DNA of 64,000 nucleotides from positions 64,001 to 128,000 of IMG/VR virus record IMGVR_UViG_3300035499_000522. One strand, 5' to 3'. Source of the DNA: a virus. Lineage: Duplodnaviria; Caudoviricetes. The position numbers and the translations under genes are program-made. The notes beneath the pieces were generated by a model. The model worked only from the letters and a program-made list of their open reading frames with translations. It ran no database searches and was not told the DNA's origin. This document shows, one piece after another, positions 1 through 63,120 of this stretch; within the stretch, counting starts at the first letter, position 1, and each line of letters starts with the position of its first letter.

Positions 1-531
1 AATAAGATTTTGGATTCAATAGAAGCAGCAAGACATACAACATTAGACAAAGTAATATCTGCGGCAGGTATCCCCCTTATTGGTAAGTCAGTAGCAAAAG
101 ATTTAGCAAATTATTTTAAAACTTATGAAGCATTTAGAGAAGCAAAGGATTTCACACATTTGCCCAATTTTGGATATGAGATGAACAAAAGTTTAACTAC
201 ATATAACTACACAGAATTAGATGATATTGTAAAAAACTATTTAATACTTGATTATAATGAAGGCACTCAGGAACCCACACCCGCAATTGATTTAACTGAT
301 TATACCTTTTGTGTTACAGGCAAACTTGTAAGTATCAAAAGAGAAGAGTTAAAAAATAGAATTGAAGCGGCAGGTGGTAAAGTTACTGGCTCTGTGTCTT
401 CAAAAACGGACTACTTAATTAATAATGATATTAATAGCACTTCATCAAAAAACGTAACAGCTCAGCGACTTGGCGTTCCTATAATTACTGAAAGCGAATT
501 TGCTAATATGTTTCCCAATTTGATTAATTGA
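1..531 (+). CDS. ligA: NAD-dependent DNA ligase, C-terminal part (HhH + BRCT), 5' truncated by the window
   Basis: GIPLIGKSVAKDLA HhH motif; BRCT 'FCVTGKL...GGKVTGSVSSKTDYLINN...SSKNVTAQRLGVPIITESEF'. Confidence 0.9.
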   Translation, partial: NKILDSIEAARHTTLDKVISAAGIPLIGKSVAKDLANYFKTYEAFREAKDFTHLPNFGYEMNKSLTTYNYTELDDIVKNYLILDYNEGTQEPTPAIDLTDYTFCVTGKLVSIKREELKNRIEAAGGKVTGSVSSKTDYLINNDINSTSSKNVTAQRLGVPIITESEFANMFPNLIN

Positions 532-570
532 AAAATTTTTGATATAATATATATACAGAAAGGTTAATAA

Positions 571-771
571 ATGAACAATAAAAAGCTTAAAGTAGTTGCT
601 GAAAGAATAGCGGAACTTGAATATAAATATTCAATATCTGCTTCACAAGAGGAAAAAGACAAGATTGAAAGAAATATTGCTAGTATAGTAGGAAACTATA
701 GTATGGCGGATATGCTTGAATTAGATGATTATATACAAAGCAATTATATTGACAAAATAAAAAATATTTGA
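571..771 (+). CDS. hypothetical protein (66 aa)
   Basis: Intact ORF with AAGG RBS. Confidence 0.6.
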   Translation: MNNKKLKVVAERIAELEYKYSISASQEEKDKIERNIASIVGNYSMADMLELDDYIQSNYIDKIKNI

Positions 772-777
772 TATAAT
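749..777 (+). promoter_or_regulatory. sigmaA-type promoter
   Basis: TTGACA-17 nt-TATAAT with TG extended -10. Confidence 0.8.
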
Positions 778-861
778 ATATATGTAATAAAAAAGATGAA
801 AAAATTACATCTTTTAAAATAAAAACAAATTATATAAAATTAAAAGGAGAAATTATTTATT

Positions 862-1140
862 ATGCTTAAGGATAATGCAAAGACAGTATTTAATTATGTA
901 AAGGATATGGATGGTAAGAACATCACAGCAACAGATATTTCTGAGGCTACAGGTCTTGAGGTAAGAAGTGTAAATGGTATTGTTACTTCTGCTTTTTAGA
1001 AGAAGGGCTTGATGGAGAGAATCCCAGCTGAGATTGAACTTGATGATGGTTCTCATAAGGCTGTAAAGTTTATTAGACTTACAGAAGCTGGTAAGTCTTT
1101 CGATCCTGATGCAGAAGACGTTCCCGCAAAGGACGAGTAA
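862..1140 (+). CDS. small winged-helix DNA-binding protein (one in-frame TAG=Gln at 997-999)
   Basis: AAGGAG RBS; MLKDNAKTVFNYVK..ITATDISEATGLEVRSVNGIVTSAF(Q)KKGLMER..IRLTEAG; ends TAA. Confidence 0.7.
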
Positions 1141-1213
1141 TAGCTGTTACTTAATATAGATTTTAGGGAATAGGTTACATAATCTATTCCCTTTTTCTTA
1201 GAGGAATAAATGT

Positions 1214-2098
1214 ATGAGTAATTTTTTAATAACAATAATAATAGTTGATATATTGGTATTTACTGTTACATATGGTATATATACTTATTTGTTTTTAAAA
1301 CAACGAAAAAAGCAGAGAGAAATATATAGTAAATTAGAAATAGATATTGATATATTAGAACATAAAAAAGAAAATTTAAATCAAGAAATAGAAGAAAGAC
1401 AAGAATAGCTTAATGCGGCAATTGAAGAATTAACAATATAGAGAGAGCAAAAGAAACAAGAATTTAAAGAAAAATGTGAACAAGATTATTAGGATATAAA
1501 GGATAATTATGATTATAGTGTTGCGAAAATAAATGAATAGATATCTGCGGCAGAGAATAAACTACGGAAGATATAGGATACACTTAATGCAGCAACCGCC
1601 GCACAAACTAGGGCTTAGGAAATAAAAGATAATAAAAGTTTTTATTGCTTACCTTTATCTATTGAGGATTAGAATGATATTCAAGTATTAGAAAGAGTTA
1701 AGAAGCAATTAAATAAGCCAAGAATTCTAAGTATGTTAATTTGGTCTACTTATTTTCAAAAGCCAATGAATACATTATGTAATAATATTTTAGGAACTAA
1801 AGAAGTAACTGGTATATATAAAATTACTAATTAGTTAAATAATAAATGCTATATAGGTTAGAGTGTTGATATAAGTACTCGTTTTAAAAATCACGCAAAG
1901 TGCGGCTTGGGTATAGACACGCCGCCCGGCAATAAACTTTATCAAGCTATACAGGAAGATGGCATATAGAATTTCTCTTGGGAACTTTTGGAAGAGTGCA
2001 GTAAAGACGAATTAAATGAAAAAGAAATGTTTTATATAGAATTATATTAGGCAAAAGAATTTGGTTATAATACTTTGAAAGGTGTGAATAGTAAATGA
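1214..2098 (+). CDS. membrane-anchored coiled-coil protein with C-terminal GIY-YIG nuclease domain (~11 TAG)
   Basis: N-terminal hydrophobic helix; TAG readthrough gives GIYKITN(Q)LNNKCYIG(Q)SVDISTRFKNH; TGA stop overlaps the next ATG (ATGA). Confidence 0.8.
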
Positions 2099-2931
2099 AA
2101 TTTGAAAGAACTCTTGTATCTGGGTTTGAGGGAGCAATAAGAGGTATGCGGAATCCGCTTGAAAGCTGGTCCCGCTCTGATAGCAGATTTGGATTTATAG
2201 ATAATAATTATGATACTAAAGCAGTTAATTATAGATTAAAAGATGCAGCAGAAGCTTGGTTTACTTATAATGAATCATTAAGAGAAAATATTAAAAACTT
2301 TAAAGAAAAATCTATATCAGATTATGAATCTTGGCTTTCTTATAATAATGAAGTTGGATTTGATTTTGATAATAATATAGAATAGTTTGTATATATTGGG
2401 CCGCATGATATGCGGCTTATGCAAAGACTTATAAAAGCTGGCGGAGAACATCGTAAATTCATGCGGCAGATACAAGTTTCTGTCGATATTACCGCCCCAT
2501 TGTATTGGTGGAAGGAAGCTGATACCTATCGCGTTGGGGTAACAACAAACTCAACTTCTACAATGCACAAACTTGCAACTACTCCCATTACTATTGATTG
2601 CTTTGAAACAGATGATTATACAGGAAAATGTCTCTATTTAGGATATATAGAAGAATCTAATTCTGTTGATTTTTCTATAACATCTTATATTAGTTTTTTA
2701 GAAAGACTTCGTCTTGAATATCTTAAAACTAAAGATAAAAAATATTGGAAAGAATTAATAAGATGGCTTCCGGAATCTTGGCTTCAAACTCGTACTGTAA
2801 CTATGAACTATGAAAATATATATTCTATGGTTAAACAAAGAAAAAATCATAAACTCACTGAATGGAGCGAAAGCTTTATGGATTGGGTAGAATTACTTCC
2901 TTATGCTAATGAACTTTTGTTTTTAGAATAA
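2095..2931 (+). CDS. thyX: ThyX-like flavin-dependent thymidylate synthase family protein (one TAG at 2383-2385)
   Basis: Two track ORFs are in frame and joined by one TAG; 'EHRKFMRQIQVSVDITAPLYWWKEADTYRVG...STMHKL', 'RKNHKLTEW'. Confidence 0.65.
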
Positions 2932-6041: not shown

Positions 6042-7571
6042 ATGGCTAAAGAAAAATATATTGATATTCCTGCTATTGTACAGTTAATTGGCGGAGTTTA
6101 TTTAAATAATTCAGTATTAGATAATTCTCATTATTTTTTTGATGAGGATGATTTTACAGAAAGATTTCATAAGATTCTTTTTGGTACTATCTATAATTTG
6201 CATAATTTAGGTGTCACTAAAATAGATATAATAGCAATTGAAGATTATTTACAGCAAAGACCAGAAGCATATGGCGTTTATCAGTCTAATAAAGGTAGAG
6301 AATACATTCAGAAGTTGGAAGAGAATACACAGGTCGCCGCATTTGATTATTACTATGGCAGAGTTAAAAAAATGACTTTGTTTAGAATGTACGAAAAAGC
6401 TGGAATTAATTTGTCTTGGCTTTATGATATAGATAATATATTAGACACAAAAAAGAAACAAGCACAAGAAGATTGGTTAGATAGTCATTCTCTTGAAGAA
6501 ATAGCAGATATAATAGATAGTAGAATTTCTTAGGTTAGAAGTAAATACGTTGATAATTCTATTGAAAATGCTGGTCAGGCGGGAGACGACATATTTGAAT
6601 TAATTGAAGATTTTAAAGCCAAGCCTGAATTTGGTATTCCTCTTTATGGTAAATATATAAATACTATAACAAGAGGTGCAAGGCTTTCCAAAGTATATAT
6701 GCGGTCTGCCGCTACAGGACTCGGTAAAACTCGTACAATGATTGCTGATGCTTGTACTTTTGCTTGCGATACAATATTTGATTTAACTGAATATAAATGG
6801 GTATCAAATGGTACAAAAGAACCAACAGTTTATATAACAACAGAACAAGATAAAAAAGAAATTCAATCAATGATGTTAGCTTTTGTTTCCGCAGTAGATG
6901 AAGAACATATTCTCACTGGTAAATATGAAAATGATGAATATGAAAGAGTAAAATATGCGGCAAAGATACTACAAGATTCTCCACTTTATATAGAAATGCT
7001 TCCAGACTTTTCAATGCAAGATATTGAAAATTGCATTAAAAGAAATATTCAACTTAAAAATGTAAAATATATTTGTTATGACTATATTCACACTTCTATG
7101 AAAATTCTTAGCGAAATATCTTCTAAAACTGGCGTTAAAGGATTGCGAGAAGATAATATCTTATTTATGATAGGAGTAAGATTAAAAGATATAGCAATGC
7201 AATATGGAGTATTTATTATCACATCAACTCAGCTAAATGGCGGCTATGTCGAAGCTAAAGTATTTGACCAAAATCTTTTGAGAGGTGCAAAGAGTCTTGG
7301 AGATAAAATTGATGTGGGAATGATTATGCTTAGAGTCGAAGAAGAGGAAAAAGAAGCTCTGGGTCCAATAATCAGAAAAGGTGGATTTGAGATGCCAGAT
7401 ATAAAGATTTCAGTGTATAAAAACCGTAGAAGTAGATATGAACATATTTTAATATGGTGTAAAAGTAACAGAGGAATTTGTAGAATTGACCCACTCTTTG
7501 TAACTGGTTATAATTATGACTTTATTCCTATTGAAGATACACAAATAAAAGTTGTAGAAAGTAGTAATTAA
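6042..7571 (+). CDS. dnaB: DnaB-like replicative helicase (one TAG at 6531-6533)
   Basis: Two in-frame fragments; Walker A AATGLGKT, 'YDYIH', 'TQLN', 'LRGAKSLGDKID', 'YKNRR'. Confidence 0.9.
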
Positions 7572-7573
7572 TT

Positions 7574-8647
7574 ATGTCATTTTCTTATAATAAAGATGAA
7601 ATAAAAGAAAACCTGACAATAGAGCAAATATATGATTTATTAGCAGAATTAGGAGCAGAACCTATTCTTAAAAATAATTTGATAGTTTCACGTACAATAT
7701 GTCACGGTGGCTCAAGTCATAAACTTTATTATTATGGAAATACCAACTTATTTCGTTGTTATACAGAATGTGATGAAGTATTTGATGTGTTTCAATTAAT
7801 TCAAAAGGTTAAGAAAGTGACGTTGCCGCAAGCTATTAAATTTATAGCAAATTTCTTTGGGATACAAACTCAAGATTTAGATTTTGATGAAGAACAAAGA
7901 TTAAAAGATTGGGAAGTATTCAATAATTATGAAAGAATAAAAACAATAGATGAACATAAACAAATAGTTGAATTTAAAATATTTGATAAGAGTATTTTAA
8001 ATAATTTACCTCAGCCGCATATTTTAAACTGGGAAAGAGAAGGAATATCATATGATGTTATGAAAAATGCGGGAATCGCCTATGACCCCTCAAACCAAGG
8101 TATTGTAATCCCGCATTATGATATAAATGGAAATCTTATAGGAATAAGAGAAAGAACATTAATACAAGAGGAAGAGCAATATGGTAAATATAAACCCGCA
8201 ATATTTAATGGCATAATGTATAATCATCCTCTTGGTTTTTCATTGTATAATTTGAACAATAGTAAAGACAATATAAAGATAATGAAAAAAGCTATTATAT
8301 TTGAATCGGAGAAAGCCACATTACAATATGCTAGTTATTATGGAATTGAAAATGATATTAGTTGTGCGTGCTGTGGCAGCTCAATAATTAATTATCAAAT
8401 TCAGTTGTTGCTTTCTCTTGGCGTTCAAGAAGTAGTTATTGCTCTTGATAGACAATATAAAGAGATTGGCGATGACGAATTTAAGCATTGGACTAAAAAG
8501 TTAGAAGGCTTTAATAAGAAATTTAAAAGCTTAGTAAATATATCTTTTATATTTGACAAAGAACATAACTTAGAATATAAGATGAGCCCAGTTGACGCAG
8601 GAAAAGATACTTTTTTACATTTATTTAAAGAAAGAGTGATTTTATAA
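7574..8647 (+). CDS. dnaG: DNA primase (Zn-binding + TOPRIM)
   Basis: ICH...CYTEC zinc motif; 'IIFESEK', 'VVIALDRQ'; adjacent to the helicase. Confidence 0.85.
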   Translation: MSFSYNKDEIKENLTIEQIYDLLAELGAEPILKNNLIVSRTICHGGSSHKLYYYGNTNLFRCYTECDEVFDVFQLIQKVKKVTLPQAIKFIANFFGIQTQDLDFDEEQRLKDWEVFNNYERIKTIDEHKQIVEFKIFDKSILNNLPQPHILNWEREGISYDVMKNAGIAYDPSNQGIVIPHYDINGNLIGIRERTLIQEEEQYGKYKPAIFNGIMYNHPLGFSLYNLNNSKDNIKIMKKAIIFESEKATLQYASYYGIENDISCACCGSSIINYQIQLLLSLGVQEVVIALDRQYKEIGDDEFKHWTKKLEGFNKKFKSLVNISFIFDKEHNLEYKMSPVDAGKDTFLHLFKERVIL

Positions 8648-9030
8648 TGTATACAAGTTATTTTGCTCAATTAAAGAATCTTCCAGAAAACTTCATACCT
8701 ATTTCTATATGCGGAAAAGCACCAGAATGGTACACTGGACTTCAATATAAGAAATTCGCACCAAAGTATACTTTTTTTATGTAGTGGGAAAAAACACACG
8801 ATAATGATTATTATATAAGATGTTTTAATGAGCAAGTATTAAATAAGCTTAATATTGAAATAGTAAAACAAGATTTATTAAAATTAATTTCTACTATTGA
8901 CAATTATCAAGAGAAAGAGATATGTCTATTATGCTATGAAAAACCATCTGATTTTTGTCATAGGCATTTGGTTGCGAAATGGCTAAATGACAATGGAATT
9001 GAATGTAAAGAATGGGAGAAAAATAAATGA
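8647..9030 (+). CDS. DUF488-like protein (one TAG)
   Basis: MYTSYFA..ISICGKAPEWYTG..; C-terminal 'LLCYEKPSDFCHRHLVAKWL'; TAATG and ATGA overlaps with both neighbours. Confidence 0.65.
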
Positions 9031-10823
9031 AATATTAGCTAATTAATTAGTATGACAACTAGCCATCTACTCTTGAATTGATTTTTATGAATAGAGGAAT
9101 AAAGTAGAATGAAATTTAGGATTATATAAATACAACAGATGAAGATATAAATTCACCTTTATTATTGGGTGAAGAAAATCTAAAAAGTGCGGTAGCTATT
9201 TTATTCAAAGCAGTAAAGAATAGTGAGCAAGCTATAATCATTGTTGACCCAGATGCAGATGGATTCACAGCTTCCGCTACTTTAATTAATTATCTTCATA
9301 ACATATGTCCTTCTTGGATAGAAAATAATCTTTAGCTTTATTTTCATACAGGAAAATAGCATGGACTAGATGATTGTATAGATTATATTCTTGAAAATAA
9401 TTTTTCTTTGGTTTTAATTCCAGATGCGGGAAGTAATGACTATGAGCAGCATAAACTCTTAAAAGAAAGAGGAATCCCCGCAATAGTATTTGACCATCAC
9501 GAAGCTGAAAAAATTAGTGAGGATGCTATAATAATTAATAATTAGTTAAGTGATTATCCTAATAAATTTTTATCAGGTGTTGGAATAACATGGTAGTTCT
9601 GCCGCTATGTAGATAAAATAATCAATAAAAGCTATGCAGATTAGTATTTAGACCTTGTGGCACTTGGTAACTGTGCAGATATGATGAGCCTTACTTCAAA
9701 AGAAACAAAACATATTATTAATAAAGGATTTAAACAAATTAATAATCCTTTCATTAAATATATGGCAGACAAAAATAGCTATTCATTAGGTGATAAAGTA
9801 ACGTCAATGGGTGCCGCCTTTTATATTGTCCCTTTTATCAATGCTATTGTAAGAAGTGGAACATAGGAAGAAAAAATCTTAATATTCAATTCAATGCTTG
9901 AATACAAAGCTTATAATAAAATTCCTTCAAATAAGAGAGGACATAAACTTGGTGAAGAAGAAGAATTAGTTGTACAAGCTATTAGAACTGCTATTAATGT
10001 AAAAAATAGATAGACAAAAGAACAAGATGCAAGTATGGAATTTATTGAAAGCAGAATAGAAAAAGATAATATGCTTGAACATAAAGTGTTATTATTTTTA
10101 TTAGAAGGCGGAGAAGTGAAGAAGAATTTAGCTGGGTTAGTAGCTAATAAAATTATGGCTAAATATTAGCATCCTTGTTGTATTCTTACTAAAGCTGCTT
10201 CTGTTCCTGATGAATCAATTCCGCCTTGGGAAGATTAGCCAACTACTATTTCTTATTAGGGTTCTGCAAGAGGATGCGATATTGCGGGAGTTTCTGAATT
10301 TAAAGATATATGTGAAAATACTGGATGTATATCTTGGGCTTTTGGTCACTAGGGAGCTTTTGGTTTATCTCTTCCCGCTGATAATATTGATAAATTTGTT
10401 GCCGCAACTGATGAAGCTTTAAAAGATATGTCCTCTTAGCCTATATATTATGTTGATTGTATTTATGATGGCGATAATATAAATCCAAATGATATATTAG
10501 AAATTGCTTAGCTTGATGACTTTTGGGGAAAAGATTTTGATGAACCTTATATAGCAATAAAAGATTTAAAGATAACAGCAAATATGGTTACAATTTATAG
10601 AAAAACTACTAATACAATAAAGATTAGTTTATCAAACAATATAGATTTAATAATGTTTAAAGCATCAGAAGATGATTGCGATATTTTTCAAACAACTAAT
10701 ACAGGATACACAAAAGTGGATATAATAGGTTAGTGTAGAATAAATGAATGGAATGGCAACGTGTCACCGCAAATAGAAATAATTGATTATAATATAGTCA
10801 CTTCAAGTAAATATGACTTCTAA
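9027..10823 (+). CDS. recJ: RecJ-like DHH-family ssDNA exonuclease (~19 TAG)
   Basis: Readthrough gives an open 598-aa frame with 'IVDPDADG', 'K(Q)HGL', 'PDAG', 'FDHH', 'LSGVG', 'GSARG', 'GH(Q)GAFG'. Confidence 0.9.
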
Positions 10824-10963: not shown

Positions 10964-11203
10964 ATGGACAGTGCTGAATTATCTAATTTTGAATTTTTAG
11001 ATGCTATTACTATTGTTGGCTTCTTGGCTCAACTTGATAATATGGACAAAGATGAGAAAGAAACAGATTACATTCACAAAGTAATTGATTCAATAGCTAA
11101 CGAAATAGAAAAATTACATAAAGAAAATGAAATAATAATTGAATAGAATAATAAAATATTGAAGTTATTAGGAAGAAGTGAGGAATATGGAGCTAACGAA
11201 TAA
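10964..11203 (+). CDS. small hypothetical protein (one TAG)
   Basis: AAGGAG RBS; readthrough IIE(Q)NNKILKLL to TAA. Confidence 0.55.
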
Positions 11204-12365
11204 GCAAGAGCAAGGACTAAAAGCGGTATTAACCAAGTATAAAAATCATTGTAAATATGCAGTGGTATCTGGCTATGCAGGTGCAGGTAAGTCGACATTA
11301 GTACGTTTCATCGTAGAAGCTTTGGATGTGGATGAAGATAAGGTAGCTTATGGCTGCTATACAGGTAAAGCCGCAGAAGTTTTGCGTAAAAAAGGAAATA
11401 AAAATGCTATGACTTTACATAAGCTATTGTATGATAGTATTCCAAAGGCGGGCGGTGGCTTCTTCCGCAAACCAAAAGTATCTTTGGAATATAACATAGT
11501 AATTGTAGATGAGGTTTCTATGGTACCTAAATCTATGGTAGACCTATTGCTAAGTTATAGGGTTTTTGTTATTTTCTTAGGTGACCCCTTTCAGCTGAGC
11601 CAGCTTGATAGAAACGACGCACATCAGCTTTTGGATACCCCTGATATATTCTTGGATGAAGTAATGCGTCAAGCTAAAGAATCTGAAATTATACGTTTAA
11701 CTATGAAAATAAGAAATATGGAAAAATTTAATTCTACTGACCAAGAAGAAGTAATGATTATTCCAAAAGAAGATTTATCAACTGGACATATGAAGTGGGC
11801 AGATATAATTCTTTGTGCTACTAATAATACAAGACATATGATGAATACTCAAATGCGAGAAATACTTGGATATAGTGGAGATATTCAAACAGGAGAAAGA
11901 ATAATTATAAAACGAAACTATTGGGAAGAGTGTAACCTAGATGGAGATGCCCTTGTTAATGGTTCTATTGGTACAATAGAAAATCCATTTGAAAGCTTTG
12001 TTCAACTTCCAAGAACCATAAAAAATGACAGACGTAATTTGCCTTTGTATTGTTGCAACTTTATTCCAGATGGCGGCAGCCCCTTTAATAATTTGGATAT
12101 TGATAAAGATTTTCTTTTAACAGGGCAGCCTTGCGTTGACTGGAGAGTATCTTATCAACTGGGAAGAATGAAGCCAAGTATGAGTGACATTCTCCCAAAG
12201 CAAGCTACTTACGGCTATGCACTTACCGTGCATTCCGCTCAAGGTAGTTAGTGGGATAAAGTTCTAGTAATAGAAGAAAGTTTTCCTTTTGATAAAAAAG
12301 AGCACGCCAGATGGCTTTATACAGCTTGTACAAGAGCAGTTTCTCGTCTTGTTCTTGTAAGATAA
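11187..12365 (+). CDS. Dda/RecD-like SF1B helicase (one TAG at 12249-12251)
   Basis: GYAGAGKST, DEVSMV, GDPFQL, EVMRQ, 'TVHSAQGS(Q)WDKV', 'WLYTACTRA' (last motif only reached by readthrough). Confidence 0.9.
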
Positions 12366-12947: not shown

Positions 12948-15453
12948 ATGACCTACCCCGGTAGTATCCATAATCATACTCAAATGTCGAACTTTCGCTT
13001 GAGAGATTGCATCATAAAGGAAGAAGATTTAATCAATAGGGCAATTGAATTAAATCATTCTGTGTTGGCTATCACTGACCATGAATCAATAGCTGCCGCA
13101 GTTAGAGTAGAAAAGTTATATAAGAAAGTTAAAGAAAAAAATATCCCATTGAAAATAATTATGGGAAACGAGATTTATTTATGTAGAGATGGCTTAAATA
13201 ATGAAACTTATGTCCATGGAGAAGATAGGTATTATCATTTTATTCTTTTGAGTAAAGACTTAATTGGTTTTCAACAAATATGTGAACTTTCTACTCGTGC
13301 GTGGATGCGTAGCTATAAAAGTAGAGGTATTAGAAGAGTTCCTACATATTATCAAGATATTGTAGAAGTGATTGGGGCGAATCCCGGTCATGTTATTGGA
13401 ACAACCGCCTGTTTAGGTGGAATGTTGGCAACTCAGCTTCTTAAATATAGGGAAACAGAAGATGAAGTTTTGTGGAAAAAAATTCTTAATTGGTGTAATT
13501 TAATGAAGAATACATTTGGCGGCAAAGATTATTTCTATCTTGAATTACAGCCTTCTGAATCAAAAGAGCAAAGTTACGTCAATAGAAAATTAATTGAAAT
13601 TTCTTCAATATTAGACATAGATTATATTATAACAACGGATACACATTATTTAACCAAAGAAGATAGACCTATCCATAAAGCTTATTTAAATTCACAAGAT
13701 GGCGATAGAGAAGTCGATTCTTTTTATGCAACAACTTATCTTATGGATACAGAAGAACTTGAATCTCATTTAGAGCTTTCAAGAGAAGAATTAGATAAGG
13801 CTTATAATAACATTTTAAAAATTCAAAATCTTTGTGAAGATTATTCAATATTAAAGCCTTTAAAAATTCCAAGCTTAAAATGGAATGATTATAGTTACAT
13901 TGACGTTACAGAAGATTGGTTTGAAAAAATTCCTTATTTAAGAACTTTTTACAATTCAGATTTTATTGGAGATAGAGTCTTAGTAAAAGCAACAATAGAT
14001 GGAATTAATAAGCATTATGATTTGCAGAATAAAGAAGCATATAATGAAATAAATAGCAATCTTGAAATGACTTGGATTTCATCTAATGTAAACAAAGCAC
14101 ATTGGTCAGCTTATTATCTTAATCTTCAAAAAATAATTGATTTGTGTTGGGAAGCAGATTCAATCGTAGGTCCGGGACGTGGCTCTGGCGTTGGTTTTAT
14201 TCTTCTTTATGCTTTAGGAATTACGCAAATTAATCCTTTGCGGGAAACTACAAAGACATTCTCTTGGAGATTCCTTAACCCAGAGCGTGTATCAGTATTG
14301 GATATAGATTTTGATATTGAAGGTTCTAAGAGAGATGCTGTTCTTCATAAGTTTAGAGAATTTTACGGTGAAGATAGAGTAGCAAATGTTACAACATTCA
14401 GAACAGAAAAATCAAAATCAGCAATACTTACTGCCGCAAGAGGATTAGGAATTGATAACGATACGGCTCAGTATCTTGCAAGTTTAATTCCCTCAGATAG
14501 AGGACAGTTAAGAACTTTAAAAGAAGTTTATTATGGAGATGTCGAAAAAGATTTCAAACCTGTTTCAGCTTTTGTTAATGCTATGAATAATGAGTATCAA
14601 GATTTATGGCAAGTAGCACAAAAGATTGAAGGATTAATATGCGGAACTGGTGTACACGCAGGTGGAGTAATTTTTGTAGATGAGCCTTTTACATTATCTA
14701 CTGCATTAATGAGGGCACCAGATGGTACTATTTGTACACAGTTTGACCTCCACGATGCAGAAGATGTGAGCCTTATTAAGTATGACGCACTTTCAGTCGA
14801 GGCTATGGATAAAATACACGCTTGCTTAGATTTGCTTTGTGAACATAATTATATAGCAAAAGAAAAAACATTAAAAGAAACTTATGAAAAAGCTATTGGA
14901 ATATATAAGTTGGATAGAGATTCCGAAGATATGTGGGAAATGATTTGGAATCATAAAGTGCTTGACTTGTTCCAAATGGAAAAACAAAGCGGCGTTCAAG
15001 GTATCGCATTGGCTAAGCCAAAAAGTGTAAATGATTTAAGTGTACTTAATTCAGTTATTCGATTAATGGCACCTGATAAAGATAGTGATACTCCTTTGGT
15101 AACTTGGTCTAAGTACAGAGAGAATATTAATCTTTGGATAGCTGAAATGAGAAGATATGGATTATCAGAAGACGAAATAGATTGGCTTAGTCATCATTCT
15201 GCTGTAACACAAGGCATCTGTGAATCACAAGAAGGACTGATGCAACTCGTACAAGAGCCAAGATTAGGCGGCAATTCATTGAATTTTGCTGACCGTTGCC
15301 GCAAAGGCATAGCTAAAAAACAAGGCAAATTATTTCAAGAATGTGAAGATGAATTTTACGAGAATATAAAAAAGAATAATTGTTCTGAGAAACTTGCACA
15401 TTATGTTTGGGATGAATTACTCAAGGTACAGCGTGGCTACTCGTTTAACAGGT
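12948..15453 (+). CDS. dnaE: DNA polymerase III alpha subunit (family C), exon 1
   Basis: PHP 'HNHT', 'AITDHE', 'GPGRGSG', catalytic 'DIDFD', 'HAGG'; ends GYSFNR + T at the splice site. Confidence 0.92.
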
Positions 15454-16654
15454 TGTTGTGGCCTGTACAAGCTTAACCGTTTATCAACGGGGTTAGAAAT
15501 AATTAGGTATTGGTAGTACCTGTTTCTAGCTAACGAGGGTAAAATCTCGTGTCAAATGAAAAGTAAATTAAATAAATAAGAAAGGAGGAATTTTATGGTT
15601 ATTTATAAGATGACTAATAAAATTAATGGAAAATGTTATATTGGTCAAACTAAGAATTTTAAAATTAGAATGAATGGACATAAATCAGAAGCTTTCAATC
15701 CTAATGCAGTAGGATATAAATATCCATTATCTAATGCAATTAGAAAATATGGGTGGGAAAATTTTGAGAATACTATTATTGAAGAAATTGACCCAACAGA
15801 ATCTTACGAATATGTAGATGAAAGGGAAAGATTTTATATATCTTATTATAAGTCTTTATCTAATGAAAATGGATATAATATTACTCTTGGAGGACAAGGA
15901 TGTCCAAAAAAACCCTTAACATATGAAGAACGCCTTCAATTAAGTAATATATTTAAAGCTGATGAAATTAAAGATATTCAACAAATGCTTAAAAATGGAG
16001 AACAAACAACCACTATTCGAGAAAAATATTATCCAAGACTTTCTGTAAGTTTTCTTGATAATATTAACAAAGGATTAAATTTTAGAAATAAAGAATGGAC
16101 ATATCCACTTCGTGCAGAAGATATATCTCGTTCTAATTATTTTACTTCTCAAGAAATAAAAGATATTAAACAAGATATTAAAGACAATATGACTTATAAA
16201 GAAATTTCTGAGAAATGGAATATAAGTTTAGGAATGCTTTCTGGTATTAATAATGGTTCTATTTGGCATGATAATAATGAAAAATATCCTTTATGTATAA
16301 AGAGTCATTCTAGAAAACAAAATCTTGAAACTTGGGTTAAATCAGTTCAATATGATTTAATGAATAGTAATTTACCTATGACAGAAATTGCTAAAAAATA
16401 TGATAAAGCATATAGCACAATTAAAAAAATAAATTATGGTCAATCGCACCATAATCCTGAATATCTTTATCCTTTAACTAAAAATAGAAAAAACTAATTT
16501 ACTTTTCAAAATGATGTATCGACTATCTGGGGTTAGACCCAGAGTACTGGAACTATTGATACGTTCTGGGAAATAGCTTGCGGCCCACGAGCCAAACTAC
16601 CAAATTGACTCGTCATAGAAAGGCTGTAAAAAATAGTCAGTTTTTAACAAAATG
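15454..16654 (+). mobile_element. group I intron in dnaE
   Basis: P1 ACAGGU/GCCUGU with U.G at the 5' splice site; P10 UGUG/CACA; P7 GACTAT...ATAGTC; terminal G; splicing restores GYSFNRSHCLAYS. Confidence 0.9.
15595..16497 (+). CDS. intron-encoded GIY-YIG homing endonuclease with three C-terminal repeats
   Basis: 'VIYKMTNKINGKCYIGQT..RMNGH', 'ERFYI', 'GYNIT.GG'; AAGGAGG RBS; no TAG. Confidence 0.9.
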   Translation: MVIYKMTNKINGKCYIGQTKNFKIRMNGHKSEAFNPNAVGYKYPLSNAIRKYGWENFENTIIEEIDPTESYEYVDERERFYISYYKSLSNENGYNITLGGQGCPKKPLTYEERLQLSNIFKADEIKDIQQMLKNGEQTTTIREKYYPRLSVSFLDNINKGLNFRNKEWTYPLRAEDISRSNYFTSQEIKDIKQDIKDNMTYKEISEKWNISLGMLSGINNGSIWHDNNEKYPLCIKSHSRKQNLETWVKSVQYDLMNSNLPMTEIAKKYDKAYSTIKKINYGQSHHNPEYLYPLTKNRKN

Positions 16655-30306: not shown

Positions 30307-32924
30307 TATTTTTCTCCTTTCTATACTTCAATACCATATTCAATAGTAGATTCAAGTTCTTCAATATTAAGGTCAATAGCTTCAATTGAATTTATATTAA
30401 CTGATGCTGTATTAGTAATTCTTGTTAATAATCCATTAGAATTAAATGAATATAAAGTAATATCTTTATTATCATATTTCCAAACATCATCAGAAGTGGT
30501 AAATTTATTTAAATCTAATTCAGATTTTCTTAAAAATGTTCCATAAAAATAAAATTCATAAACATTTTCTTGAATTAATAAGCTACCTGTAGGTCCTATT
30601 ATTGTACGTTCTGGCTTTGTATCTTCTCCAGACTAAATGTATAATACAGTACCCGGGTCTGCCTCTATCTCTAATCTTGTAATATTTATAATAGATGAAT
30701 ATCTTTCATCATTATCATAATTATAAGTATCATTATCTTTTATCATCTCAACAATAGAATCTAAAGTAGTAAAAATATTTGTCCACTAAATAGGATAAAT
30801 AGTTTCATAAATTACTGCTATTGCAGTAGCTTTATTTTTGCTTGGTGCGGGGGAAGCATTACTATATACTTCTACTGTAGCTTTATAATATATATTAACA
30901 TCTTCCTATTGAGCAAATGTAATAGAATTAATTTCTATTTCATCTCCACTTATTTGATAGATACCATCTTCATTAATTACAAAAGGAATTTTATCTATAT
31001 AAATAATATATCCTAAATAAGTATTAGAATCAGAAGCAGAAGCAATTGTAGGAGTTCCATTATTATCTTTAATAAGATAAGGTTTACTATTAAATGAAAA
31101 TTTAATATTCTAAAAATTCTTAATAGCTGCTGTGTAACCTTCTTCAAGATTATTTTGTTCCTATTCTGTAATTAAATTAATAATATTCGTTCCTGCATTA
31201 AATATTGTAGTTCCATTATAAAATACCTAACTATAATTTTCATAGGTATCTTCTAATTCTCCATCACTTCCGCCAGTCTAAGTGTCTGTATCTGCCATAT
31301 ATTCACCAAGTGACTAAATATTATAATAATTATAATTTTCAATAGTATTATCAGCAACTTCATATGCAGTACAAGAAAAATTATAAATGTATCTATTTAA
31401 ACCCTATTCAGGAGATAAACTAACATTCATTAGTTTAACTAAGAAATTACCTTCGGTTGTAGATTTAAACAACTTAACATTATTATCATATAAGAAATCC
31501 ATAACTTTTTCTCTAAATTTCTTTTCATATAGATAATCATTATAGTTGTTTATATTTCTTTCTTCATTATATTTTACATAGTAATCTATATAATCTCCAC
31601 CGAATAATTCTTCTTTAGAAGTAAAAATTTCTTCTTCATCCATCCAAAAGGAAATCAATCCGGATATTGGAAGTTCTACGTAATTAACATTACCATTTTT
31701 ATTAATAAATGGATATTGAGAACCTATAGTATCAGTTTTACTTTCTGATACCGTTCTCTTATAAGAAGAAATACTTGGATTATATTTTATTTTAAGCTAA
31801 GTATTTCCACTTACCAAAAACATATCATTAAATACGCCTAATAAAGGTTCTTCATTTAGGATTGCGGCAATACCCCTGCTGCCATTAGAATATCCCTTTT
31901 GAATAGAATACTTATATAATACGCCACTTTCTATTGTATAATCATACCAAATTCTTTCAAATTCTTCTACTTCATCAATAGGCTCAATATGTACGTCTTC
32001 CCAGACTCCAAAGTTGCTCACATCCGACGTCCGCCTTATTACTACATTACTCTATAGATTTTTACCAGATAAAGTTATCTTTACTCTTCCATTTTCTTCA
32101 TCCATAGAAATTTCAGAATTAATATTAAGCTTACTATTCTAATCAAGAGAAATAGAAAAATTATATATATACTAAGCAGTATATAAATTTCTTGTTGTTA
32201 TATTTAAAATAATTTTATACTTTTCGTTCTCTTTCAAATCAGTTTTAAAAGTATAGTTAATCTAATTTACATTGGTATAGCTATTACTATATAATTCATT
32301 TGTATCTAAAATTAATTTGTTTACAGAATCATATAGTTTTATTCTATAACTTCTTAATGTTTCTTGTTCGTTTTCTTCAAATTCAACAGAGCCAATTAAA
32401 CTAACTGTAGAAGAAGAGAAAACTGTACCATTAGTTTCTCCTTCTATAAAATTCTTAATATTAACTTGCGGCGGCTCAATACCTTTAATCAAGCATACTG
32501 TTGACCATTCAGAAAATTTAGTTAAATTTTCATTAAGCCAGTTATCTATACTTTGTACTCCATCTACAAATGTAGGTGCTTCCGCAGAACTAAAACGAAT
32601 CTAAACTTTATAATACTAATTAAGTTCAAATTCTTTATTGACTAAATCTTCTTTTTTTACTTCTATATAATATTTATCATCTGTGTCTTTTGTATAATCT
32701 TCTTTTACATCAGTGACTTTTATTTGACTTAAATATATATCAGAATCTAATTCTGATTGATTAGTTTTTTGGTTATTTACTATAACCTATGCACATTTAA
32801 CTTCATCTATACTATTATAAGTAGATAAAGAGAAATAAATGCGGCAACCATCTACCGCATTTTTTGCAAAGGCTGGCATATATGTATTAATAATAGGTGG
32901 ATATAAATTATTAAATGTTGCCAA
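30306..32924 (-). CDS. baseplate/tail structural protein (TTG start)
   Basis: Three track fragments are in one frame; AAGGAG RBS; 'KTDTIGSQYPFI', 'KLFKSTTEGNFLVKLMNVSL'. Confidence 0.65.
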
Positions 32925-38189: not shown

Positions 38190-41100
38190 TTATCTCTTTG
38201 TATTAAAAGCGTATTGACTTGCACGGTTAATTAAGTTATTAAATGCGTCTTGAATTTCATTAGAATTAGTTACATTTGGGAATGTAGCTTCTATTTTAAC
38301 ATTTTGGTCTACCGCAGAAGAACTTGTGCTTGTGTCTCCAACATTATAATTACTTATAGAACTTAAAGCGTTAAGCATCTAAGAGCCTAAAATACTCTAT
38401 AATGCTGACATTACTGAACCCATATCTCTAACAGTATTAACTGCACTTAAAATATTAGCTGTATCAGCTTTATTAAGAACTAATTCTTTTTCATGAAGCA
38501 TTGCCATTTTGCCATTGGTACTATTCCAATCACCAGTATATCCACCAGTATCATAAGATTCAATTGCACTAACTCCTACATCGTTTTTCTGAACATACCA
38601 TGTCATAGAGTCATTATCCTATATACCTTTTACTTTATACCAAACGTCCCCGTCAGCATCCATAGTTACTTTTGATAAAACATCTCTATATTTAGTAACT
38701 TTGGCTTTAACTCTATCTTTTGTAGTACCATCTTTTTTAACAGTTTTATAACCAATAACGCCTTCTGTTACTTTAACTCTATATTTTTTAGTATCGCTAG
38801 AAGAATCATCAGAATCAGAACTAGAGCTTCCTGAAGAACTACCACCAGAAGTACTTCCAGACGTAGTAGAGGATGATGTATTATCTTCTGCATTAGTAGC
38901 ACCTGCATTAGCAGATTCCATAGCTGTTGCCGCACTTACTGCTGCGTCTGCTAACTAATTATAATAATCTGCCGTGTTCTTTAACTATTCAATTAAAGTT
39001 GCTAAAGACTTTGCCTATTCTTCATAAGTATTGATTAAATCTTCGTTAATATCAATTAATTTCTAAGTTTCTTCAATAGTTGGGTCAATACCGTCATCAA
39101 CAATAGAATCAAAGTCAACTCCTGCCGCATCTTCCAAATCAGATAAAGACTTCTTATAATCGTCAGTTGCAAGACCTAAATCTTCCAATGCCTTTTTACA
39201 CATTTCCGCCAATCCATCAGAACCAGCAAAAATATCAATCATTTCTTGAACTCCACTATCCCATTGAGGAATCATATCATTCATTAAAATATTCTTTTCA
39301 GCATCAGATAAATTCTAAAAATTCTAAATATCAGTATCATAAAGTGATGCTAACATATCAAAAGTAGAAGATTGCAGATTCTGTCTAATAGTTTCGTTAT
39401 CCGCAACTAAATTATTAATTAAATTACCATACTAAGTTATTAATAACGCTTTCTATTTTTCTCTTTCTTCATCTGATAAAGTAGTATCTGAATAAAGTTC
39501 TTTTAATTTATCTTCAAATTCTTGGTATAAATCATAAATATCATTTAAATTTTCTTTGTATTTATCTTTATCAAGATTATAAAGATTATTCTAAGCTTCT
39601 AATAATTCATTCTAAGCATCACTAATCTTATCTTCATCTGCAACATATTGATAAGTATAATTACCCTATGAATCTCGACGTAAACGCATCTGAGATTTAT
39701 TCTATTGAGCCTCTTCAAGAGCAATCTGCTTAAGAGCTATTTCATACATCATATTGGCTCTATCAACATCATACTAACTAACATTTTCTTTTTCTTTAAG
39801 AATATCAAGCTATTCATTCATTACATCAGTTAATTTTTGCTGAGCCTTTAAATCAGTAGTATTGTTAATAGATTCCAAAAACTTATTTTGTAAAGTCTGA
39901 ATCTCATACATTGCATCAATTTTGTCAAGATACTAATCTGCATTTTTATTAATTAAATCCCATTCATCGCCTATATATTCAAGTCCTAATCCATTAGTTA
40001 CTTTATCTTCTAACTCTTGGAATATCTCCTCAATAGCATTTTGATATTTATCTATCAAAGTTTGAATAGATTCTTCAAGCAAAGAATTTAATTCATCTTG
40101 AGCACTTGTATAATTTTCTTTATACTTTTCCCATGCGTCAGAACCTACTTCAACAGAAGCCATTTTAGATTTCCAATATTCCATTTGCTCTTTAAGGAAT
40201 GCGGCTTGTGCGTTATTATTTTTCTCTTGCTGTTCATAATATGTAGCTAATTCTTTATAAGAATCATCGCCTTTAAGAAGTTTAACTAAATTCATATCAT
40301 GCTCAATTATATCGTTGATTCTTTGATACTGACTAAGCTAATCAGAAAGTTTATCAGCAATTTTGTCAATCATAGAATCATATGCATCTTCCGCAGATTC
40401 TACTAAGTCTTGAAGTGCTTCTGCCTAACTCATCATTTCTTCACGATATTTAGTTAAATCTGAAAGTGCAGATTCTATATCCTTACCATATAGACTTGAA
40501 GTACCAGTAGCATTAATCTGGTTAATCTAATCCATAATGGTATACAGATGACTAGAAAGTGCGGAAATGGAATCATAATAAGTATAAGCATCGCTTATCT
40601 AACCTACAATAGTTCCATATATATCTTCGTCTCTTAATCCCTCAAATGCATGGCGTCTCCACTCATTCCATTCTCTTTCGGCATCATTAAGATTAAGTCT
40701 AACATCAATTTCCGCATTGAATTTAGCTACTAATTTATCTAAAGCTTCTTGTGCGGCATCCTTAATATCTTGCTCCAAATCTGCTTTATCAAATTGTAAA
40801 TCTAAAATTGAAGAATCTATATCAGTAATTTGGCTAATAAAATCATTATATTCTTCAATATATTTTTCAAGAGCCTCAACTTTTTCTTCAGCAAGTCCTG
40901 CGGAAGCTGCTTGCATTACTATTTCCGCAGCATTTATAATTAAACCTTCTTCATTTAATTTAATAATACTGCTATCAATACCAAATTCCGTCATAGAGTT
41001 CTTTAAGCCTTGAAGGTCTAAAGCTGCTTGTTCTTTAGCTAATTTCTTTTTCTTTTCATAGGCGGCAATCTCCTAATCAATTAAAGCTTGCTATTGCTTT

Positions 41101-47100: not shown

Positions 47101-47822
47101 AATGGTTCAATAGCAACGTTATAAGCAGAAGATATATATTCTAACTATGCTAAATAATCAGTTGAACTACTAATTATCTAATCAAAAGTTATATCTTGAT
47201 TATCTAAAGCTTTTTTATAAGTTTCTACTACCTAATTTACTTCTTCCTACGATGTGGCATAAGCACTCATCTTACTATTAAGTTCATCCATTCTCTTGCC
47301 AAATTCATTAATTTCAGAAGTAGACATAGAACTACTAAGTTTAACAAGAACATCTTCTTCTTGCTACAAGAAAGCTAAAGTATTGGGGTCAGTAGAACCA
47401 GCTTCCTAAAACTATCTTAATCCTTCTAGTTTTTGCTACATAGTCGCAACATTCTAATTTGCGGCATCTATATTGTTAGTAATACGAACTACTTCATTGG
47501 CAATATCTTCACTAAACATATTAGCAAGAAGTGGTGCGGCAACCTATAAGATGCCTAAACCGCCGCCCATGGAATCAACAAAGGATTCAATTCCAGTTAC
47601 TATTGTAGTTAAGCCGTCAGCTACTGTATTAATTGTATCTGCATCTAAAAGAGAATCAAATACACCTTCTGATGCAGTCTCTAATTGCTGTAAATGTGCG
47701 GCAGTAGATTCCATATAGATATCTTGCTGTTCTTGTAATGTACCTTGAGCATTATTAGCTACCTCTAAAGTGTCTACATACGAATCCCAGTTATCGAACA
47801 AAGCAATGAGGTTATTATATTG
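38190..47822 (-). CDS. tape measure protein, exon 2 (~3,210 aa)
   Basis: Twelve minus-strand track fragments all share one frame; Ala-rich and coiled-coil composition; C-terminal 'YDTGGYTGDW..MLHEKELVLN'. Confidence 0.85.
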
Positions 47823-50324: not shown

Positions 50325-50879
50325 TTAGTCAACAGGCTAATTAGTCTTTATATCCCTGTTTCCATTTGCGGCTTGGGCAAATTGAATAACATTTTGATAT
50401 TTATCCTTATCAAAAGTGTCAATAATATCTTGTGCGGCAGCAGCTGATTTAGGGAGGTCACTAATAACTTTAGCGGCAACCGCACCAATTGATTTGTTAT
50501 ATTCAAACTCTTGCTGAATAGTTTCATTAATATAATCGTAAAGATTATTATATTCATCTTGCGGAATTGTTTCAATAAGTTTACCAATAAAACCTGAACT
50601 CTACAAAGCATCATAGAGTTTGGCTTCGTCTTCCCGCTGTTTATCTGTAAATTTCAAATTAGTATACATATAAACAAGATGTAAATGGAAATACATATCA
50701 ATTTTAAGAGGATTATAGTATCCATTTTCTTTAGATTTCTAAAGAGTAACCATTAAAAGGTCATATTTATCATTTATTGGTAAATAATTCAATACTTCAA
50801 TTTCTGTATCATTAAAATTAAAAGTATTAATACTATTATCCTTTTTTAATTTTAAATTAGTATAACTAATTGTACTCAT
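50325..50879 (-). CDS. probable tail assembly chaperone
   Basis: AAGGAG RBS; 184 aa with TAG=Q; immediately upstream of the tape measure. Confidence 0.55.
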
Positions 50880-50921
50880 ATTTTTCTCCTTTTATTTCAA
50901 TATCTTTTTTCTATTACTATA

Positions 50922-50950
50922 AGTATAACATAAAAATTTTTATTTGTCAA
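50922..50950 (-). promoter_or_regulatory. sigmaA-type promoter inside the structural arm
   Basis: TTGACA-17-TATACT with TG. Confidence 0.7.
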
Positions 50951-50951
50951 G

Positions 50952-52040
50952 TTATTGAATTACATTTAAACCTAATTTTTTTATATTTTTATTTATATTA
51001 GAAATAGCTATTTCTTCTGCTTTTTTGTCTATATTATTATTAAAACTTTCTCGATTAGTTACATAAATATCTGTTAAAGCTTTAATCATTTCATTTTCAT
51101 TTTTTTTATCCAAAGCTTCATTAACTGCTTTTAATGTAGTAGCTATTGATGATATCTATATTAAATTAGCACTTGAGTTATATACTGCTTTTAATTGTTC
51201 GGTTCCTATATCACCAATTTGCCATCCCTTATCGCCATTTCTTAAAGATTCTTTAATTAAGGCTTCTGCAAGTGATTCAGTATTATAATTATTGCTATTG
51301 CCTATATAATTTATAGTTTTATATTTATCTATTGTTCTAAGAACTTTGTATGCTTCAAATGCATGACCTAAATTTCCTATATTTATTTTTTTTTGATGGT
51401 TGACTAAAGAATCCCATAAATTTGGTTTATCTAAAGATGTTATAATTTTATTAAGTTCATTTTCATTTTTTTCTAATTTATTTATTAATTTATTTATTGC
51501 TGTATTACTTAAAGATAAAGACATCTAATTAGACAACTTAGTTTCTTCATTAACAATTTTATAATCAGACAAAGTTAATGATATTGCTGGAAATAACTAT
51601 TGTAAAGTTAAATGTGCTTCTAGTAATTCTTCTTTGGATTGATATAAAATAGTATAAGTGATTTCCTAATCAGTTAAAATTTCTCTTATATAATGTAATA
51701 ATTTATATCCTTTAATAAAATATTGTGTTATTTCATTTATATCTTTTAAATTTTTAATATGCTTTTTTTGAGATACATATTTTTTTATAATTTTATTTAA
51801 ACCTGCATAACTTAAATCTTTTTCACCTTTATTGCTAGATATTGCTAAAGATTTTTTTTCTTCTAATGTAAAATTATTATATATAGTTATTAATTTTTTA
51901 TCAAATCTTTCTTTAGTTTTTAACCATTGAGAGATACTTTTTTGTATAGACACAATTGTATCATCATTAAAAACTATTTCTTTAGTTTTATCTTCAAATT
52001 TTTCTATAAATTCTTTTAAATAATCATACTAAGCTGCCAT
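50952..52040 (-). CDS. very AT-rich hypothetical protein (362 aa)
   Basis: Fragments 51156.. and 51666.. join by TAG readthrough; GGGGTGA RBS. Confidence 0.6.
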
Positions 52041-52065
52041 AATAAATCACCCCCAAAAAGATATA

Positions 52066-52097
52066 AAAAAAAGAGGATATATAAAATATCCTCTTTA
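52066..52097 (-). terminator. intrinsic terminator after the major tail gene
   Basis: AAAGAGGATAT-ATAAA-ATATCCTCTTT with an A-run on +. Confidence 0.65.
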
Positions 52098-52131
52098 TTT
52101 ATATTAATCAATTAAGATTAAAATTTAATTA

Positions 52132-52914
52132 TTAGTCGCCCTCTTCAGCACCAGTTAAGTAACTATCCTGATACTGATTATCCTTTATAGTAGAATCTCC
52201 TGCGAGTTCCTCATCAGTATAAGGCTTGAACTCTTCCTTAGGGTCAGAAGTATGTGTCATAACTGACTTGATTTCCTCTGTTGCAGAAGTACTATCCTCA
52301 ACAATCTGGATTACACAAAGAACCTTCTTAGTGCTATCAAAATAAGTGTAGCCGGGGAATGCGTCCATTGTGAAAGAGAATGTTGAAGGGTCGCCAGTTG
52401 AAGCCATTGTAAATGTAAAGTTAGACTGAATCTTTACGTTAGGGAATGTAATTTCAGCAGGCATATCAACACCTGTATCCTAACGTCTAAATAATGTACT
52501 AGCTTCTACATAGTAATAACCAGCGAAGTTCTCGGCATCAATCTGAAGTTCAGAAATAACATTACCGCCCTTGACTACATAATAGTCTACTAATACAGAA
52601 GTCTGAGATGTAATTTCTTTAGCCTGAAGACTCTTCTTGTCCTCGCCAATAGCTACTTCAATAACCTCACCTGTAACAGAGCCGTCTACCTCAGTCTTTA
52701 CAACAAAGATAGGAGCATCTTCACAAATTGTATCACTACCAAGAGCATCAGCTAAATCAATCTTACCAGAAGCGTCTGCAATAGTAGCAGTAGTTGTATG
52801 AACGTGTACTTTTTCTGTATTATCTTTACCCTTAATTAAACCTGCACCAGAAAGAATAGAGAAGCCAATAGGAGAGAGCAAAGCATCCTCAACCGTGAAT
52901 GTTAAAGTTTTTTC
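52132..52914 (-). CDS. major tail (tube) protein, exon 2 (one TAG)
   Basis: 'KTLTFTVEDALLSP', 'LFRR(Q)DTGVDMPAEITFP', 'FTMASTGDPSTFSFTMD'. Confidence 0.75.
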
Positions 52915-62763: not shown

Positions 62764-63120
62764 TTAATATCCCGCAGCTTTAAATATATAATCGTAACTA
62801 ATAAGATTTTCATTCCAATAAGGAATCAAAACTAAAGTATATCCATGTTTTTTACAATATTCCCTTTTCTGCATATCATTGTACTATTGTTTTCTTAAAC
62901 CAGATATTCCGCCAAACTTACTTTTAGCTTCATAATGCTATATACCTTGATATTCAATTAAAAAGTCTATATCACCATTATCATCAAATACACAAAAGTC
63001 AAAACGCAAAGGACGATGACTTGAACTTACTAAATCTGGAAATATATATTCTTCTTGAAAATTTACTCCCGCAGAATTTAAGATATCTTCTATTTTTATT
63101 TCACCTCTAGAGGCACGCAT
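62764..63120 (-). CDS. PD-(D/E)XK / Vsr-like endonuclease
   Basis: 'SRGEIKI', 'LRFDF', 'IEYQGI(Q)HY', 'KREYCKK', 'IPYW'. Confidence 0.75.

Follow-up and report, generated by a model that had tools for sequence, protein, structure and literature searches.

A directional two-word pattern, CAANAG and GCGG, maintained in a large low-GC tailed phage and its relatives

Short words that recur throughout a genome can point to a machine that tracks along the DNA, as Chi, KOPS, HIP1 and the uptake sequences have each done. The cyanobacterial word HIP1 (GCGATCGC) and the uptake sequences, of which the USS core contains TGCGG, are short, GC-rich and found genome-wide within genes. Primases recognise short words as well: the T7 gp4 primase acts at 5'-(G/T)(G/T)GTC-3', does not copy the 3' template base and makes tetraribonucleotide primers, and DnaG primases start at CTG or at CTA/TTA. 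The host DnaG also reads G4-type complementary-strand origins and ssi signals, each of which is a single site, long and structured. The Chi words of Firmicutes end in GCGG: AddAB of B. subtilis contacts all five bases of AGCGG (PMC4614115), and the Chi word of S. aureus, GAAGCGG, ends in AGCGG (bioRxiv 10.1101/2021.07.08.451572). The element described here is the tetranucleotide GCGG, with its complement CCGC, in a 64,000-nt stretch of phage DNA (hereafter the window) that comprises bases 64001-128000 of the IMG/VR record IMGVR_UViG_3300035499_000522 (136,730 bp, 30.7% GC). An earlier note on this DNA had proposed that the phage copies a Chi-like motif of its host. We found that GCGG is one half of a directional pattern, in which CAANAG is followed 20-200 nt in the 3' direction by (T/G)GCGG and a GC-richer stretch of ~40 nt that often holds CCGC(A).

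The window contains 116 GCGG and 139 CCGC, 255 sites altogether (~4 per kb), with observed/expected ratios of 4.0 and 3.7. The whole phage has 613 sites, which is about four times what its base composition predicts and corresponds to a mean density of about one per 220 bp. When the expectation is taken from a maximal-order Markov model, GCGG/CCGC ranks first of all 4-mers in the whole phage (observed/expected 2.11, z 13.4), and 255 of the 854 CpG in the window (30%) fall inside it. The earlier note had counted 20 sites at 61-2500, and our recount gave the same number (11 GCGG and 9 CCGC, with ~2.5 expected from base composition), starting at 61, 281, 367, 610, 706, 1124, 1415, 1547, 1596, 1599, 1902, 1922, 2148, 2155, 2172, 2401, 2412, 2441, 2463 and 2492. 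Its other observations were also borne out: the approximately eight sites at 40.2-41.2 kb (nine at 40200-41200 by our count), the frequent spellings TGCGGCA and TGCGGAA (the commonest 7-mers around the core, 39 and 33 occurrences), the presence of both orientations whatever the coding strand (both strands are enriched in every frame), and the lack of sites in two open reading frames (ORFs), the 21%-GC ORF at 50952-52040 and the GIY-YIG homing-endonuclease ORF in the dnaE intron (15595-16497). The site-free gaps that span these two ORFs (50638..52564, at 1931 nt between site starts the longest of the genome, and 15303..16579) are two of the longest in the genome. Recently mobile homing-endonuclease ORFs lack GCGG/CCGC; after scaling for low GC, neither of the two ORFs is among the motif-poor genes at P<0.02, and the gaps are statistically unremarkable. 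The spacing of sites is near-Poisson (variance/mean 1.55), with the codon period as the only periodicity and no regular spacing or helical phasing. Density is alike in early genes, late genes and non-coding DNA. It is 4.5/kb in genes rich in TAG, which this phage reads as a sense codon (see below), 4.24/kb in TAG-free genes (32.5% GC) and 4.6/kb in non-ORF DNA (27.6% GC).

If codon usage or protein sequence were the source of this excess, it should vanish under a synonymous shuffle, as the earlier note had pointed out. We shuffled synonymous codons within each of 126 coding sequences (CDS), preserving the protein sequence and the codon usage of each gene. A dicodon-preserving shuffle, which the note had also suggested, fixes boundary-spanning 4-mers by construction and is therefore unsuited as a null. 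The excess persisted: GCGG occurs 303 times against 146.5 +/- 9.4 in the shuffles and CCGC 191 times against 63.1 +/- 6.7, for a sum over both strands of 494 observed versus 208 (strand-symmetric z 25.6), and the enrichment is 2-4x in all three frames on both strands. The choice of codons reflects this, with 150 of 203 GCG alanine codons preceding a G, 37 of 67 CCG codons preceding a C, and Ala-Ala written as GCG-GCA or GCC-GCA ~5x more often than codon usage predicts. Because the shuffles leave an excess in all frames and the density is equal in TAG-rich, TAG-free and non-ORF DNA, the GCGG/CCGC excess is a property of the DNA and not of translation. Against the same null, enrichment rises with word length, from TGCGG (3.15x), GGCGG (3.0x) and GCGGC (3.05x) through GCGGCA and TGCGGC (both 4.4x) to TGCGGAA (4.8x) and the near-palindrome TGCSGCA, which at 6.75x is the most enriched 7-mer; in the Markov test, no word longer than 4 nt stands out. 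The lineage keeps GCGG/CCGC frequent by selection on silent positions.

Apart from words containing GCGG, the top 6-mers of the phage are CAATAG, CAAAAG and CAAGAG, which share the form CAANAG. CAANAG/CTNTTG is over-represented by 1.6-3.1x whatever the frame or strand, in non-ORF DNA too, and the window holds 356 such sites. On the same strand and within 10-300 nt, GCGG lies downstream of CAANAG 641 times and upstream of it 419 times (z 6.8). This asymmetry is present with all four spellings of CAANAG, and one-letter variants of CAANAG and non-overlapping control targets gave ratios of 0.9-1.2; the only control targets that share it are GGCG and GCCG, which overlap GCGG. In the pooled profile, the distance from CAANAG to GCGG peaks at 20-40 nt and decays over ~200 nt. 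Synonymous shuffles abolish the coupling, so protein sequence is not its cause. In the late arm, it is the antisense strand that shows the stronger coupling, with a ratio of 2.13 versus 1.16.

The sequence around GCGG is also polar. When all 613 sites were oriented as GCGG and the 35 nt on each side compared, the GC content was 0.367 on the 3' side and 0.310, the baseline value, on the 5' side (z 10.7). The 3' excess holds for sense, antisense and non-ORF sites, and for sites without a neighbouring copy within 60 or 100 nt; control words such as GCAG, GTGG, GCGA and GCGT lack it. GCGG is the 5' edge of a GC-rich stretch of ~40 nt in which the inverted partner is the top word: the 3' flank holds 154 CCGC and 89 CCGCA, the 5' flank 36 and 14. 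Pairs in CDS follow the same order, with 57 GCGG..CCGC against 11 CCGC..GCGG (5.6 and 3.9 in shuffles). Examples with an extended stem lie at 15268-15302, 32841..32858 and 40900-40928, and only ~13 pairs genome-wide have stems of at least 7 bp, most having 4-6 bp. We therefore rejected hairpins or terminators as the source of the pattern; a pair in the order CCGC..GCGG could fold into a hairpin as well, which leaves the preference for GCGG..CCGC unexplained by hairpin formation. The exact dyad GCGG-N3-CCGC (in the window at 2148..2158 and 50473-50483) is found six times in the genome versus 0.7 expected, which is ~1% of sites, and never in the reverse order. With spacers of N3 and N4, there are 6 and 3 dyads here and 26 and 22 in the relatives described below, versus 0.7 and 3.9 expected. 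The pattern resembles HIP1 and uptake sequences in being a short, GC-rich, genome-wide word within genes with some palindromic dyads. It differs from them in being carried by a phage, in its coupling to a second word and in the rarity of exact dyads; because the core is asymmetric and the dyads are so few among 613 sites, we rejected a HIP1-like iterated palindrome.

We then asked whether the pattern belongs to this phage, to its lineage or to its host. We fetched 80 IMG/VR loci with portal proteins 62-70% identical to that of this phage, whose contig IDs come from many IMG metagenome samples, and scored the 61 that were at least 8 kb long. In these 61 loci, GCGG is present at 1.4-6.2x the composition expectation (most 2.5-5x, pooled 3.8x), with a Markov ratio of about 2. 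Staphylococcus phage K (0.99), Clostridium phage c-st (0.32) and Enterocloster phage CB473P1 (1.99) lack this excess, which shows that low-GC Firmicute phages are not generally rich in GCGG. The relatives (1.05 Mb) also share the directional features: GCGG lies downstream of CAANAG 3592 times and upstream 2681 times (z 11.5), the late arm's antisense strand again has the higher coupling ratio (1.79 vs 1.10, z 14.4), the GC-rich stretch is present (z 11.8), and the two pair orders occur 339 and 178 times. Among phages with a primase 46-57% identical to the one encoded here, some clades have GCGG as their top word, some have it weakly and some have CGGC instead. Several phages that share the polymerase or primase family, including CB473P1, have CGGC/GCCG rather than GCGG as their top 4-mer. 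As a cultured phage, CB473P1 offers a possible laboratory model for such words.

A search of species genomes with the DNA ligase (LigA) matched contigs in three metagenome-assembled genomes (MAGs): a 142-kb phage-like contig in an Anaeroplasmatales MAG, a 3-kb contig in an Erysipelotrichaceae MAG (52% identity) and a contig in a Mollicutes MAG (35%). The first of these, of 142,490 bp, is a related TAG-recoded phage with a 65% identical portal and 15 in-frame TAG, and a portal search of 399 genomes of that MAG's class gave a close match in this contig only. The Anaeroplasmatales MAG is the only lead to a host, and a weak one. In the phage contig, GCGG is at 4.27x composition (Markov 2.11, rank 1), and in the MAG's other contigs (360 kb) it is at 1.62x (Markov 1.18, rank 29). 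No word coupling, GC polarity or pair-order bias was found in this candidate host chromosome. The GCGG excess therefore follows the phage lineage and not the candidate host.

Selection could act on particular sites or on their number. To distinguish these, we compared conserved dipeptides between this phage and its relatives and scored the chance that a relative has the word where this phage has, or lacks, a site. The dipeptide-stratified odds ratio for sharing a site is 1.66, about what residual sharing of silent codons gives at conserved 4-fold residues in the same columns, and word occupancy at Ala-Ala in the relatives is 0.42 where this phage has a site and 0.44 where it has none. There is no positional conservation of sites beyond this silent-site background. 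What is maintained is density, while individual sites turn over.

The upheld density, the polarity and the two words in fixed order suggest selection for signals that are read by a machine moving along one strand, and the fixed order with a second word in particular implies that GCGG has a reader. The window encodes a candidate in its DnaB-type replicative helicase (6042..7571, + strand; N- and C-terminal domains PF00772 and PF03796) and the adjoining DNA primase (7574..8647, +; phrog_47, E 2e-37), and from these profile matches the phage has its own replicative helicase and primase. We tentatively favour, as a possibility held at well under even confidence, that the words are a cue for these two proteins. 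A machine moving along one strand would read the CAANAG-GCGG pattern, and the helicase and primase would use the words as start cues for lagging-strand primers in a genome of 30% GC. Template CCGC followed by A or C, with the 3' base skipped as by T7 primase, would give pppGCGG; template CTNTTG would give pppAANAG; and the GC-rich stretch, lying where the new strand would grow, would stabilise its first bases. If forks travel in the direction of transcription, a lagging-strand cue would agree with the stronger coupling seen on the late arm's antisense strand. Such a system would share with known primase recognition sites a template word of 4-5 nt with an uncopied 3' base, a purine primer start (pppGCGG or pppAANAG), a phage-encoded helicase and primase, and a polar context where the new strand would grow. 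With G4-type origins and ssi signals it would share a start trinucleotide with a GC-rich inverted repeat after it, as read along the new strand, although those known sites differ from the hundreds of minimal sites here, which have variable spacing and mostly 4-6 bp stems.

Several points weigh against the helicase-primase cue. The words are enriched about equally in both orientations, where a simple lagging-strand signal would be expected to favour one of them, and at ~40 nt the GC-rich stretch exceeds the usual primer. To our knowledge, it is not established that primase sites are enriched throughout any genome, and neither T7 nor bacteria have an established enrichment of this kind by selection on silent sites. 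The primase has no Pfam match, which leaves a zinc-finger reading head in it conjectural. The link between the words and these two proteins is one that we infer, and the trait would correlate just as well with any other gene that the lineage conserves; the RecJ-like 5'-3' exonuclease (9027-10823, +) and the RecD-like SF1 helicase (11178-12365, +) are alternative strand-tracking machinery encoded by the phage. The reader may also belong to the host. Our literature search returned no description of this word in phages, nor of a genome-wide signal for a phage replisome.

We weighed this reading against four others, two of which need no reader. The excess could be a by-product of codon usage, amino-acid content and the avoidance of restriction sites (GCGC, GGCC, CCGG, CGCG, GCWGC and others). 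Avoidance is extreme in this phage: GATC occurs once in the window and three times in 136.7 kb, with 2 in the 126 CDS where the codon shuffle predicts 212; GCGC stands at 0.07, GGCC, CGCG, CATG, CTAG and TCGA are depleted, CTGAAG/CTTCAG is at 0.29 and GCWGC is mildly depleted. Many palindromes made only of G and C are strongly avoided, and Ala-Ala pairs use GCSGC in place of GCWGC. A shuffle that never exceeds the observed counts of avoided words lifts the expectation for GCGG/CCGC from 208 to ~277, so that avoidance accounts for roughly a quarter of the excess, but with 494 observed about three quarters remain. The set of avoided words varies among the relatives (GCGC 0.1-5.3, GATC 0-1.0), and in the 42 of 61 that do not avoid GCGC, GCGG is nevertheless the top word (3.75x composition, 1.91 Markov). 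In these GCGC-tolerant relatives GCGC is at 2.17x and CCGG at 0.53x, and we rejected a general effect on CpG flanked by G or C on these grounds. The excess is also present in non-coding DNA, and other low-GC phages avoid palindromes too without showing it. The constrained shuffle and the GCGC-tolerant relatives largely refute the by-product explanation, which we regard as extremely improbable. A neutral, context-dependent bias of mutation or repair, such as very-short-patch-like correction of T:G to C:G or the error signature of a polymerase, would be in keeping with sites that turn over, with a uniform density in coding and non-coding DNA and with the 30% of window CpG that lie within the word. 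It would predict neither the second word upstream on the same strand nor the preference for the order GCGG..CCGC, however, and density does not rise with GC (4.6/kb at 27.6% GC, 4.24/kb at 32.5%). The words from which sites would be made are undepleted (GCAG/CTGC 1.0, GTGG/CCAC 0.95). A very-short-patch footprint of the Dcm/Vsr type was rejected for the same lack of depletion in T-containing derivative words, together with the lack of matches to PF00145 and PF03852, which leaves the phage without a Vsr or C5 methylase. A neutral bias is accordingly improbable.

The remaining two explanations each posit a reader. The earlier note had offered a protein-binding or modification site as its alternative to Chi, and this part of the note is closer to what the data allow than the Chi proposal itself. 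The word could be what some sequence-specific enzyme or protein recognises on double-stranded phage DNA, be it a nickase, a modification enzyme or a coating protein, and in one version nick-directed, GC-biased repair would create the one-sided GC-rich stretch, which does look like a repair tract. Equal enrichment on both strands with a 4-bp asymmetric core, as in AciI-type sites, agrees with such a target, as do the near-palindrome TGCSGCA as top 7-mer, the excess of GCGG-N3/N4-CCGC dyads and a PAPS-reductase-like protein encoded by the phage. Profile searches of the 136.7-kb record for PF00145, PF03852, PF01555, PF02086 and PF01702 gave no match, however, and the record has no C5, N4/N6 or Dam-type methyltransferase, TGT/DpdA or Vsr by this approach. 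The near-total avoidance of GATC argues against general protection of the DNA by modification, exact dyads are a small minority of sites, and sites that provoke their own repair ought to disappear, not accumulate. On balance, a double-strand target is unlikely. As for Chi, (T/G)GCGG would switch a host AddAB that enters at DNA ends from degradation to protection, with the GC-rich DNA 3' of the word slowing AddAB before it meets the site. The phage word shares with Firmicute Chi a short, G-rich form ending in GCGG (PMC4614115; bioRxiv 10.1101/2021.07.08.451572), directional reading of one strand, as the one-sided context indicates, and a dependence on density rather than position, with site turnover and both orientations useful on linear DNA. 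AddA homologues are encoded in candidate host MAGs, and TGCGG is the best GCGG-containing 5-mer of the Anaeroplasmatales candidate, but with only 356 occurrences versus 294 expected and with the host assigned through its binned phage contig only. The spelling itself speaks against a copy of a known Chi. AGCGG is enriched only 1.5x, making A the least favoured of the allowed bases before GCGG, where T or G is preferred; GAAGCGG is at control level (5+5 occurrences vs 5+8 for the reversed control); the core is 4 nt, with nothing longer standing out in the Markov test; and the candidate host chromosome, with its Markov ratio of 1.18, has neither the enrichment nor the polarity and coupling. Moreover, Chi assigns no role to CAANAG and has no counterpart to a second word upstream or to GC-rich DNA on the 3' side; clades of related phages with similar GC differ in the type of word; and the phage has its own recombination set of RecJ-like, RecD-like, AAA_24 and RuvC-like proteins. 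Of the mimicry claim in the earlier note, the DNA-level signal on both strands therefore stands, surviving the codon shuffle, while a copy of a known Firmicute Chi does not, and Chi mimicry is poorly supported. A Chi spelled otherwise (KGCGG) may exist in the actual host, since the candidate MAG encodes an AddA homologue; the Chi reading as a whole is quite unlikely.

The genome that carries these words uses a modified genetic code. Under the standard code, ORFs fill only about half of the window. When TAG is read as sense, there are 61 tightly packed genes over 95% of the window, and ORFs add up to 1.13 of the window length, compared with 0.53 before (window 862-64000; late arm 23518-64000). 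One of these genes, at 38190-47849, encodes 3219 aa and contains 84 in-frame TAG. As a sense codon, TAG most likely stands for Gln. The leftward late arm and a few replication genes have many in-frame TAG codons, and most early genes are without them; the late genes at 57441-58022 and 58104-59159 also have none. The rightward arm of the window encodes the C-terminus of the DNA ligase, an AAA_24 ATPase, DnaB, the primase, the RecJ-like exonuclease, the RecD-like helicase, DnaE split by the GIY-YIG intron ORF, NrdD/NrdG, a dUTPase and a RuvC-like protein, and the leftward arm carries the genes for the tail, the capsid region and the portal. The DNA polymerase is ~37% identical to those of SPbeta-like Bacillus phages and Enterocloster phages, and a megablast search with 6 kb against cultured phages found no close relative. 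Between the primase and RecJ-like genes, a small DUF488-N3a protein (E 1e-13) is encoded at 8647-9030 (+), for which a literature search on DUF488 returned nothing relevant. An ORF of 118 aa at 62764-63120 (-) is kept beside the portal in essentially all relatives. We rejected it as a Vsr, since it has no Vsr match, only a sub-threshold DUF2726 match, and nothing in PDB (by sequence) or NCBIfam; judged from sequence, it is more likely a packaging-associated nuclease than a mobile endonuclease. Outside the window, the phage encodes the PAPS-reductase-like protein (genome 41592-42644), which belongs to the fold class of DndC and BrxP, a GyrB/GyrA-like type II topoisomerase pair, a PARG-like protein, and adjacent ORFs for a kinase (AAA_33, a candidate polynucleotide kinase), a metallophosphatase and an RNA ligase, which are possibly an RNA-repair set.

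This phage lineage spends rare codons on hundreds of copies of a 4-mer. It is a real if tentative possibility that a clade of large, AT-rich gut and rumen phages writes a two-word, strand-polar punctuation for starting or stopping its own replication or recombination, in which case the clades with CGGC may reflect the co-evolution of word and reader. The GCGG and CAANAG words are simple, testable probes of this idea, and they distort codon-usage and k-mer host prediction for these phages. Should the host AddAB turn out to read the word, the Chi of a group of uncultured hosts would be revealed by it. If the primase and helicase read it, the words would be direct evidence that the density of priming sites shapes the sequence of a phage genome, and they would offer a signature in the sequence by which the replication modules of uncultured phages could be assigned.

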